DNA of 64,000 nt from Escherichia phage P1. Positions 1 to 3,468 of the stretch are shown here, one piece after another; position 1 is the first letter of the stretch, and each line of letters starts with the position of its first letter. The stretch lies in the sequence record NC_005856.1; one strand, 5' to 3'. Under the pieces are notes generated by a model, which was given only the letters and a program-made list of their open reading frames with translations, was not told the origin of the DNA and made no database searches. Made by a program: the position numbers and the translations under genes.

Positions 1-17
1 ACATTATACGAAGTTAT
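1..17. other. loxP recombination site, partial (last 4 nt of spacer plus right 13-bp arm TATACGAAGTTAT); window begins inside the site
   Basis: Window starts ACATTATACGAAGTTAT, matching the 3' half of the canonical 34-bp loxP (ATAACTTCGTATA-GCATACAT-TATACGAAGTTAT); the Cre gene follows about 420 bp downstream. Confidence 0.85.
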
Positions 18-36
18 ATTAAGGGTTATTGAATAT

Positions 37-109
37 GATCAATTTACCTGTAAATCCATACAGTTCAATACCTTAGCAGGTCAAATAGTGACCACTTGAT
101 CATTTGATC
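37..109. promoter_or_regulatory. Cluster of three Dam GATC sites (each in TGATCA context) in the cre upstream region
   Basis: GATC at 37-40, 98-101 and 106-109; cre promoters are reported to be Dam-sensitive (established knowledge); exact promoter hexamers not assigned. Confidence 0.45.
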
Positions 110-115
110 AAGGTT

Positions 116-174
116 GCGCTACGTAAAATCTGTGAAAAATTGGCGGTGTTAGTCCTACAGATTTCGCGTAGCGC
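116..174. repeat. 18-bp imperfect inverted repeat (GCGCTACGTAAAATCTGT / ACAGATTTCGCGTAGCGC) with 23-bp spacer
   Basis: Arms at 116-133 and 157-174 differ at 2 positions; lies between loxP and the first strongly ribosome-binding-site-led ORF. Confidence 0.5.
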
Positions 175-206
175 ACTTAGCACCACCAATCAATCAGAGG
201 TGAAAA

Positions 207-428
207 ATGGGATATTCAACTGCTAAAGTGTCCACTCATCTTGAGCTTGAGAAAAACCGTGGTTACTGGCGGGCAAAAGGGTTTGATCGTGATAGTTGCC
301 AACTGTCATTATCGCGCGGTGAAGAGAAAATAGAACGCACGCGCGGTCGCTGGCGTTTCTATGACGAGAACCATAAACAGGTAAAGGCAGAGCCGATCCT
401 GTACACTTTACTTAAAACCATTATCTGA
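207..428 (+). CDS. Hypothetical small protein (73 aa) immediately upstream of cre
   Basis: ATG at 207 preceded by GAGG 6 nt upstream; stop TGA 426-428 lies 8 nt before the cre ATG; no recognisable domain, so it may be non-coding leader sequence. Confidence 0.3.
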   Translation: MGYSTAKVSTHLELEKNRGYWRAKGFDRDSCQLSLSRGEEKIERTRGRWRFYDENHKQVKAEPILYTLLKTII

Positions 429-435
429 GTGTTAA

Positions 436-1467
436 ATGTCCAATTTACTGACCGTACACCAAAATTTGCCTGCATTACCGGTCGATGCAACGAGTGATGA
501 GGTTCGCAAGAACCTGATGGACATGTTCAGGGATCGCCAGGCGTTTTCTGAGCATACCTGGAAAATGCTTCTGTCCGTTTGCCGGTCGTGGGCGGCATGG
601 TGCAAGTTGAATAACCGGAAATGGTTTCCCGCAGAACCTGAAGATGTTCGCGATTATCTTCTATATCTTCAGGCGCGCGGTCTGGCAGTAAAAACTATCC
701 AGCAACATTTGGGCCAGCTAAACATGCTTCATCGTCGGTCCGGGCTGCCACGACCAAGTGACAGCAATGCTGTTTCACTGGTTATGCGGCGGATCCGAAA
801 AGAAAACGTTGATGCCGGTGAACGTGCAAAACAGGCTCTAGCGTTCGAACGCACTGATTTCGACCAGGTTCGTTCACTCATGGAAAATAGCGATCGCTGC
901 CAGGATATACGTAATCTGGCATTTCTGGGGATTGCTTATAACACCCTGTTACGTATAGCCGAAATTGCCAGGATCAGGGTTAAAGATATCTCACGTACTG
1001 ACGGTGGGAGAATGTTAATCCATATTGGCAGAACGAAAACGCTGGTTAGCACCGCAGGTGTAGAGAAGGCACTTAGCCTGGGGGTAACTAAACTGGTCGA
1101 GCGATGGATTTCCGTCTCTGGTGTAGCTGATGATCCGAATAACTACCTGTTTTGCCGGGTCAGAAAAAATGGTGTTGCCGCGCCATCTGCCACCAGCCAG
1201 CTATCAACTCGCGCCCTGGAAGGGATTTTTGAAGCAACTCATCGATTGATTTACGGCGCTAAGGATGACTCTGGTCAGAGATACCTGGCCTGGTCTGGAC
1301 ACAGTGCCCGTGTCGGAGCCGCGCGAGATATGGCCCGCGCTGGAGTTTCAATACCGGAGATCATGCAAGCTGGTGGCTGGACCAATGTAAATATTGTCAT
1401 GAACTATATCCGTAACCTGGATAGTGAAACAGGGGCAATGGTGCGCCTGCTGGAAGATGGCGATTAG
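436..1467 (+). CDS. cre: Cre tyrosine site-specific recombinase (343 aa)
   Basis: Protein MSNLLTVHQNLPALPVDATSDEVRKNLMDMFRDRQAFSEHTWKMLLSVCRSWAAWCKLNNRKWFPAEPEDVRDYLLYLQARGLAVKTIQQHLGQLNMLHRR...MVRLLEDGD is recognisably P1 Cre; adjacent to loxP. Confidence 0.97.
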   Translation: MSNLLTVHQNLPALPVDATSDEVRKNLMDMFRDRQAFSEHTWKMLLSVCRSWAAWCKLNNRKWFPAEPEDVRDYLLYLQARGLAVKTIQQHLGQLNMLHRRSGLPRPSDSNAVSLVMRRIRKENVDAGERAKQALAFERTDFDQVRSLMENSDRCQDIRNLAFLGIAYNTLLRIAEIARIRVKDISRTDGGRMLIHIGRTKTLVSTAGVEKALSLGVTKLVERWISVSGVADDPNNYLFCRVRKNGVAAPSATSQLSTRALEGIFEATHRLIYGAKDDSGQRYLAWSGHSARVGAARDMARAGVSIPEIMQAGGWTNVNIVMNYIRNLDSETGAMVRLLEDGD

Positions 1468-2826: not shown

Positions 2827-3468
2827 ATGGATAAGAAAATATGCGTTGTTTCGATGAGCGTCGGCAAACCGGCGTCAATGACTGCTGCATGGATCAATAA
2901 CGAGCTGATAATGGCTGAGCGGACCAGCTACCCTGAACGCCGCCGCGATATGGAACTCCAGCTGCTGCGCGAATTGCGAGAAAAAGAGGAAAAGGGTTTT
3001 ATCGTGCTGGTGGAAGAGGAAAACAGCTTTATTACTGGACGAGTTGGCCAGCGTGTAAGGTTGCGTGATCCCTTCATGAACGGTAGACCGGTACTGATTG
3101 AAGCAATGCAGATTTACAAGGAATTGGAACGCCAGAAAGCGATCAAGTTACCGCGCAAGGAATCCGGCAAATACATCCTCCACCAAAGCATCTTCGATTC
3201 CGAACATGACAAAAAAGGCGATGAATTTTTCAACATCAACTGGAGCGAAATAACGACAGAGCACGTTCTGACGTTGTTATGCTGCTTCGCAACGGAATAC
3301 AACAACGTTGCAAACTCCGACTACATCAGGGCAATGGCTGGAGAAGTTGAGCCACGCCAGGAACCATCGTTACTAAGTCCACTGATTAACATAATTCGCG
3401 GCACACAGAGACTTGCGGAAAAAAGCGTTCCACATGGAATCTTAACTGGAAAGGGAAACTATTTTTAA
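2827..3468 (+). CDS. mat: Particle maturation protein candidate (213 aa from ATG 2827; longest ORF begins 2680)
   Basis: ORF downstream of the composite promoter; ATG 2827 preceded by a G-rich Shine-Dalgarno (TAGGGGG); starts at 2680 or 2716 would lie inside or too near the promoter; name assigned by position from memory. Confidence 0.5.
   Translation: MDKKICVVSMSVGKPASMTAAWINNELIMAERTSYPERRRDMELQLLRELREKEEKGFIVLVEEENSFITGRVGQRVRLRDPFMNGRPVLIEAMQIYKELERQKAIKLPRKESGKYILHQSIFDSEHDKKGDEFFNINWSEITTEHVLTLLCCFATEYNNVANSDYIRAMAGEVEPRQEPSLLSPLINIIRGTQRLAEKSVPHGILTGKGNYF

Follow-up and report, generated by a model that had tools for sequence, protein, structure and literature searches.

The interval between loxP and the recombinase gene cre of Escherichia phage P1 holds a small open reading frame (ORF), and the locus raises two linked questions: whether this ORF encodes a real small protein, serves as a leader, or arose by chance, and whether the translation of cre is coupled to it. 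Few genetic tools are in wider use than Cre-lox, and the ORF is the gene directly upstream of cre in the native phage. The stretch of DNA analyzed in this work (referred to here as the window) comprises 64,000 nucleotides of P1 (record NC_005856.1). Its first base falls midway through loxP, and its sequence matches positions 1 to 1500 of the P1 genome record AF234173.1 with 100% identity. On the + strand, the ORF begins with an ATG at 207 to 209, continues for 73 sense codons, and ends with a TGA at 426 to 428. The next ORF listed for the window is cre (436..1467, + strand, 343 codons), with its ATG at 436.

The Shine-Dalgarno sequence of the small ORF, AGAGGTGA at 196 to 203, has a GAGG core at 197 to 200, after which six bases (201 to 206) precede the ATG. 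Its calculated duplex with the 3' end of 16S rRNA has an energy of -11.7 kcal/mol, a value that only 0.6% of random 20-mers drawn from the window reach, whereas the corresponding value for cre (-3.0 kcal/mol) is the median of such 20-mers. The original prediction had placed the ORF at 207 to 428, with its GAGG 6 nt upstream and its stop ahead of a cre ATG at 436, and had described a strong Shine-Dalgarno sequence for the ORF and no obvious one for cre. Each of these coordinates agrees with the sequence and the ORF listing, and the duplex energies bear out the difference between the two genes. The accompanying suggestion that no described protein lies at this position did not hold: the ORF is cra, an already annotated P1 gene, and its detection here is a rediscovery rather than a new finding. 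It appears as "pot. ORF1 (aa 1-73)" in the 1986 record of cre (X03453), where a putative rRNA-binding site is annotated at its Shine-Dalgarno sequence; as cra (CDS 207..428, AAQ14085.1, "putative cre associated function") in AF234173; and as upf0.2, at the same coordinates, in phage P7 (AF503408). The gene is also drawn in a published loxP-cre map (PMC2409434) and is among the genes counted in an RNA-seq study. Under the designation P1_gp002, it has been found to be nonessential for plaque formation, with an efficiency of plating of 0.66 upon CRISPRi knockdown (PMC10695390). The features of the region are collected in Table 1.

Table 1. Annotated and predicted features of the loxP-cra-cre region, in window coordinates
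Feature	Position(s)	Strand	Evidence and remarks
loxP, right half (end of spacer and 13-bp repeat)	1..17	+	Annotated in AF234173 and P7; sequence ACATTATACGAAGTTAT read in the window
LexA box, cre regulatory region	46..65	+	GenBank annotation (AF234173, AF503408)
Dam (GATC) sites	37-40, 98-101, 106-109		cre regulatory region
Promoter P3cre (pR1)	104..129	+	Annotation (AF234173, X03453); upstream of cra; -35 overlaps Dam sites
cra Shine-Dalgarno sequence, AGAGGTGA	196..203	+	Sequence, duplex energy, X03453 annotation
cra CDS	207..428	+	Annotation, PHROG 804 match, purifying selection, structure prediction
Promoter P2cre (pR2), within cra	283..312	+	Annotation (AF234173, X03453)
Promoter P1cre (pR3), within the 3' end of cra	400..424	+	Annotation (AF234173, X03453)
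cra-cre spacer GTGTTAA, 7 nt	429..435	+	Sequence; length kept across lineages, letters not
cre CDS, 343 codons, without its own Shine-Dalgarno sequence	436..1467	+	ORF listing, annotation, duplex energy

Taken as a whole, the locus is best explained by a genuine, annotated gene for a small basic protein, with a proposed partial coupling of Cre synthesis to its translation. We assign this overall reading a probability of about 0.8. The evidence for the protein, for the junction with cre, and for the coupling is considered in turn below, and the individual parts carry different weights.

Chance expectation and selection on cra

The length of the ORF is unremarkable by itself. In shuffled versions of the 64-kb window, approximately 34 ATG-initiated ORFs of at least 73 codons are expected, which is the point in favor of regarding cra as a fortuitous reading frame within a regulatory spacer. 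ORFs of this length that also carry a Shine-Dalgarno sequence as strong as that of cra are rarer in the shuffled DNA, with approximately 2 expected per window versus 15 observed. Taken alone, the ORF and its Shine-Dalgarno sequence are thus suggestive; it is the evidence from conservation that marks cra as more than a product of chance.

To gauge this conservation, loci were retrieved with Cre as the anchor, so that the sample is unbiased by the state of cra. Among 85 close cre-anchored loci, 79 carry an intact 73-codon cra whose stop lies 7 nt before cre. In two loci (L019 and L051), the start ATG of cra is replaced by CTG, and in two others (L021 and L071), cra has a 1-nt frameshift; cre is intact in all four. 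The remaining two loci have an extra gene between cra and cre. More divergent P1-like elements from Klebsiella, Salmonella, Cronobacter, and Pantoea, in which Cre is 65 to 82% identical to that of P1, have a 71- to 72-codon cra homolog (41 to 68% identity) in place ahead of cre.

The substitutions between these lineages are of the kind expected for a coding sequence. With dS at approximately 1 or saturated, dN/dS for cra is 0.04 to 0.29 (NG86), compared to approximately 0.04 to 0.1 for cre among the enterobacterial P1-like lineages. Individual lineage comparisons gave, for example, 35 synonymous versus 15 nonsynonymous differences and 18 versus 4, and most differences fall in third codon positions (e.g., 8/4/34 and 17/13/45 at positions 1/2/3). 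Within the P1 clade, cra shows 41 synonymous and 34 nonsynonymous variants, with an excess at third positions (p=1e-4) and a pN/pS of 0.23 versus 0.08 for cre. Across lineages, the cra frame contains no stop codon and remains open at 55 to 66% nucleotide identity, whereas each of the other two + strand frames contains 2 to 10 stops. Judged from these substitution patterns, cra is a protein-coding gene whose amino acid sequence is under purifying selection, and a chance frame has next to no probability. The original prediction had named conservation and dN/dS of this frame across P1-like phages as a check, and a frame broken in close relatives as the outcome that would count against it. The frame is conserved, at the dN/dS values given above, and breakage is confined to a small minority (4 of the 85 cre-anchored loci).

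The intact form also predominates in larger collections. The exact P1 Cra sequence is present in at least 1,000 contigs and belongs to a cluster of 633 members, and a 41-amino-acid frameshifted form (P0043) was found in 115 contigs, with the junction to cre unchanged. In PLSDB, 1,470 plasmid records match Cra; a single match spans at least 80% of the protein in 1,460 of these and in none of the other 10, a measure that is approximate, since a frameshift can go unnoticed where pieces of a match are joined.

Two local features of cra were observed in these alignments. The frameshift of P0043 (seen in L021, IMGVR_UViG_3300015177_000009, at the equivalent of approximately 285 to 292 in the window) is a 1-nt deletion that converts GAGCGTGAT to GAGGTGAT. 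The result is an internal GAGGTGA that no start codon follows, and cre and the junction stay as before. Separately, 7 of the 8 lineage representatives share the codons at 399 to 407 (CTG TAC ACT) without any change, synonymous sites included, against a background of synonymous saturation in the rest of the gene. This block covers the annotated -35 element of P1cre/pR3 (TGTACA, 400 to 405), which may hint at an overlapping constraint at the nucleotide level.

The Cra protein and its family

The product of cra is a protein of 73 amino acids and 8.7 kDa with a pI of 9.6, and the pI values of its homologs range from 9.4 to 10.9. AlphaFold predicts an alpha-beta4-alpha arrangement for Cra (pLDDT, 85; pTM, 0.71). 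The protein matches PHROG 804 over the full length of the profile (E=1e-34; Cra residues 3 to 73 on profile positions 1 to 72 of 72). Searches of the Cra sequence against Pfam and NCBIfam (both at E<=1) and PADLOC, and a profile search of the PDB sequences, returned no match, and the structural matches of Cra in BFVD are uncharacterized proteins only. A profile search run exhaustively over 1.8 billion representatives retrieved only 16 clusters, and the family is therefore narrow. A profile search of a larger collection gave 125 proteins of 65 to 81 amino acids. Common to the family are the motifs ELEK..GYWRAKGF and R.D..I, an invariant W (in RG.W), and a C-terminal LLK.II; the ELEK..GYWRAKGF, RG.W, and LLK.II motifs are kept down to 33% identity. 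As far as these sequence searches reach, the PHROG 804 family is confined to enterobacterial phages and phage-plasmids.

In NCBI and UniRef, hundreds of records of the 73-amino-acid protein (including P0003, P0024, P0027, and P0029) carry the name "creatininase." Real creatinine amidohydrolases are much larger than 73 amino acids. As the protein matches nothing in Pfam or NCBIfam at E<=1, we rejected the name as spurious; it looks like a propagated annotation error, possibly one that arose from the gene symbol cra.

Members of the family also occur with no cre beside them. Approximately 770 PLSDB plasmids of ~100 to 115 kb, from Klebsiella, Enterobacter, Citrobacter, Salmonella, E. coli, and Yersinia pestis (pFra), encode a Cra homolog at ~40% identity. 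From their size range and hosts, we take these plasmids to be the SSU5/pHCM2/pMT1 group. Homologs without cre were located in L252 to L256 and in Y. pestis pFra (L257), at positions 3001 to 3219 of L252 and L253 and 4010 to 4222 of L257. The SSU5/pMT1-type homolog invariably closes an operon that runs convergent to repA and that also encodes a RecA-like recombinase, an SPFH protein, and a NinX/DUF2591 protein; no tyrosine recombinase gene follows the homolog. Two further genomic contexts of Cra homologs likewise lack cre. Proteins of the SSU5, pHCM2, and pMT1 (pFra) types resemble Cra in size (65 to 79 amino acids), in motifs, and in their full-length match to the profile. They differ from P1 Cra in their sequence identity (31 to 48%), in their position at the end of the repA-convergent operon, and in having no tyrosine recombinase gene downstream.

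The genes upstream of cra homologs vary. A partner gene shared between contexts was considered and rejected, as the 111-amino-acid gene before the SSU5-type homolog is unrelated to the 143-amino-acid gene upstream in Pantoea. A gene for a phrog_7674 protein (352 to 356 amino acids) precedes cra in the Klebsiella-type and Pantoea elements (1434 to 2504 in L244 to L251; 759 to 1817 in L006); the proteins are 57% identical between the two, and the gene is absent from P1. In the Klebsiella type, it overlaps the start of cra by 4 nt, at the place where P1 has loxP and the promoter region.

This distribution bears on the possibility that cra is a regulatory leader ORF, in which only the act of translation would matter and the peptide would be irrelevant. 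Such a role would fit a strong Shine-Dalgarno sequence, a stop codon 7 nt before a gene without one, and a protein without known function. It is at odds with the purifying selection on the Cra sequence, with motifs that stay invariant to 33% identity, with the confident fold prediction, and with homologs that no cre follows. By the selection and distribution data, the leader reading is effectively refuted, and we regard it as hardly credible. The combination of purifying selection and homologs without an adjoining cre indicates instead that Cra acts in its own right rather than as a mere leader for cre. Of the three options in the original prediction (a leader ORF, a real small protein, or chance), the real protein is thus the one that stands, and the other two fall away. 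If Cra serves plasmid maintenance, this would matter for the P1-like and the SSU5/pMT1-like phage-plasmids, two large groups that together make up ~2% of the sequenced plasmids in PLSDB.

The cra-cre junction

The imbalance between the two Shine-Dalgarno sequences recurs across lineages. For cra, the duplex energies range from -8.6 to -12.0 kcal/mol and are made of different sequences in different lineages. For cre, they range from -0.7 to -5.8 kcal/mol (P1, -3.0; Salmonella, -2.6; Klebsiella, -0.7), and the Pantoea cre has a weak GGGA.

The distance between the genes is similarly constant. Of 95 distinct cra-cre sequences, 89 have a stop-to-start gap of 7 nt. The gap is exactly 7 nt in the P1, Salmonella, and Klebsiella types, the spacers of which are unrelated (GTGTTAA, GCAGACA, and CTAACTT, respectively). 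In Pantoea, the gap is 8 nt if cre starts at the ATG at 2462; a later ATG would give 23 nt.

In some contigs, a 131-amino-acid gene (phrog_20152) sits exactly between cra and cre (448 to 843 in L086, and also in L093, L099, L100, and L111). The inserted gene has its own Shine-Dalgarno sequence, GAGGTGA, and its TGA overlaps the ATG of cre as ATGA. In these contigs, the start of cre (433 to 520 in window coordinates, or roughly its initial 85 nt) shares only ~91% identity with that of P1, which points to a mosaic junction.

RNA structure that masks the start of cre was considered as a further property of the junction and rejected. A single-sequence fold gave a z score of -0.79, and a fold of the seven-lineage alignment gave three trivial pairs with no covariation. 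As for transcription, a scan of the window detected no terminator-like site on the + strand at 1 to 1600. Our own scan of the + strand for the sigma-70 consensus yielded no strong match and did not recover the three annotated cre promoters; pR1 to pR3 are weak matches to the consensus and rest on the GenBank annotation.

Proposed translational coupling of cre to cra

These properties can be combined into a model for the expression of cre. Promoter pR1 (P3cre), which is flanked by the Dam sites and the LexA box and lies upstream of cra, would give rise to a long bicistronic cra-cre mRNA. On this transcript, ribosomes would load at the strong Shine-Dalgarno sequence of cra and translate it. After termination at the TGA (426 to 428), they would reinitiate 7 nt further on, at the cre ATG that lacks a Shine-Dalgarno sequence, and part of Cre synthesis would thereby be coupled translationally to cra. 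Transcripts from pR2 and pR3, which start within cra, would provide a low level of Cre that is independent of cra. If coupling of this kind takes place, it would explain how P1 holds Cre low and would tie Cre to the promoter flanked by Dam and LexA sites.

On structural criteria, cra has the properties of an upstream gene in a translationally coupled pair. Its stop and the start of the next gene lie within a few nucleotides of each other (7 nt; 8 nt in Pantoea; an ATGA overlap in the insertion variant), and cre is without an effective ribosome-binding site. The two genes share a strand and may be cotranscribed: an annotated promoter precedes cra, and the + strand scan gave no terminator-like site. 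Comparable pairs are hyfH-hyfI, ydbH-ynbE, and menD-menH of E. coli and orf121-tnpA of IS91. In these pairs, as in cra-cre, a small upstream ORF with a strong Shine-Dalgarno sequence is followed by a recombinase or enzyme gene that lacks one, with the stop and the start a few nucleotides apart. There are two differences: the classical coupled pairs overlap by -4 or -1 nt, as opposed to the +7-nt gap of cra-cre, and in cra-cre the internal promoters offer an alternative route to cre.

A gap whose length is kept while its letters vary, together with the lack of a Shine-Dalgarno sequence for cre, is what termination-reinitiation predicts, which makes reinitiation of cre after cra plausible on comparative grounds, in line with the coupling that the original prediction had offered as a possibility. 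In E. coli reporter pairs, reinitiation persists to a variable degree at gaps of 2 to 14 nt and is 80 to 100% lost at 38 nt (PMC10666635), and the -4/-1 overlaps that coupled pairs typically show are more favorable than a 7-nt gap. The spacing of cra-cre would thus allow reinitiation without being ideal for it. Since no structure lies over the start of cre, coupling, if any, would proceed by reinitiation and not by unmasking. The mRNAs from the annotated promoters pR2 and pR3 would start inside cra and could not be translated from the cra start; this, together with the lineages in which cra is broken and cre is intact, means that coupling cannot be obligatory. The absence of a plaque phenotype upon CRISPRi knockdown of cra (efficiency of plating, 0.66) also weighs against a large role for coupling. 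We infer that coupling may account for a measurable share of the Cre made from the long transcript, a proposal that we hold tentatively, at slightly below even odds.

A competing account is that cre is translated independently of cra, with the 7-nt spacing and the weak site reflecting only genome compaction and selection for very low Cre. Initiation would then depend on the unstructured, AU-rich sequence that surrounds the ATG, or would take place on a short-leader transcript from pR3. Several observations are consistent with this possibility: pR2 and pR3 lie within cra, with the -10 element of pR3 ending 11 nt before the cre ATG; where cra is broken, cre is still intact and the junction unaltered; the start of cre is unstructured (z = -0.8); and 23% of the long ORFs in the window have a Shine-Dalgarno sequence as weak as that of cre. 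Against independent translation stand a gap that is fixed at 7 nt though the spacer sequence and the synonymous sites have wholly turned over and an insertion variant that swaps in an ATGA overlap with another gene preceded by a strong Shine-Dalgarno sequence, and in no lineage examined has a real Shine-Dalgarno sequence evolved for cre. We consider independent initiation, too, to have not quite an even chance of being the correct description of the junction.

Cra as a candidate partner of Cre

The position of cra also invites comparison with excisionase genes. In phage lambda, the excisionase gene xis lies upstream of the integrase gene int, and cra-cre is similar to this arrangement in that a gene for a basic protein of ~70 amino acids directly precedes a tyrosine recombinase gene. 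Cre itself needs no directionality factor. Cra could be a trans-acting partner or regulator of Cre-lox, either as an Xis-like accessory or directionality factor or as a regulator of the cre promoters. A small basic protein encoded directly upstream of a tyrosine recombinase gene, as is the case for many excisionases, would suit such a function, and synteny with cre is kept down to 65% Cre identity (in Pantoea). In addition, PepA and ArgR were tested and excluded as the source of Cre's in vivo resolution of plasmid multimers without multimer formation (PMC2409434).

Membership of Cra in the Xis/recombination directionality factor (RDF) group was rejected on two grounds. Cra matched no Xis-type family and no winged-helix or helix-turn-helix fold, and its linkage to recombinases is inconsistent, as the homologs in SSU5/pMT1-type plasmids and in other elements adjoin no tyrosine recombinase gene. 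Cra is thus unlike Xis/RDF proteins in sequence and fold, and its family also occurs without a recombinase. Because many homologs lack cre, a Cre-specific role for Cra is unlikely, and we rate a partner or regulator of Cre-lox as quite improbable. A specific version of this idea, in which Cra would bias Cre toward multimer resolution or feed back on the Dam/LexA-flanked cre promoters, with its amount stoichiometrically tied to Cre by reinitiation on the pR1 transcript, has a very slim prospect of being correct.

Neighboring genes and a stray cre fragment

Downstream of cre in the window, the ORF at 1518 to 1829 is annotated as c8 ("establishment of lysogeny, putative") and matches PHROG 1968 (E=6e-53) and no Pfam family. 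In Klebsiella-type loci, a gene of c8-like size (104 to 105 amino acids) comes after cre. Finally, a 237-bp contig assigned to Acinetobacter idrijaensis (L007) encodes Cre residues 165 to 242 at 97% identity, a fragment that most likely comes from a vector or from contamination in the laboratory rather than from a native gene.
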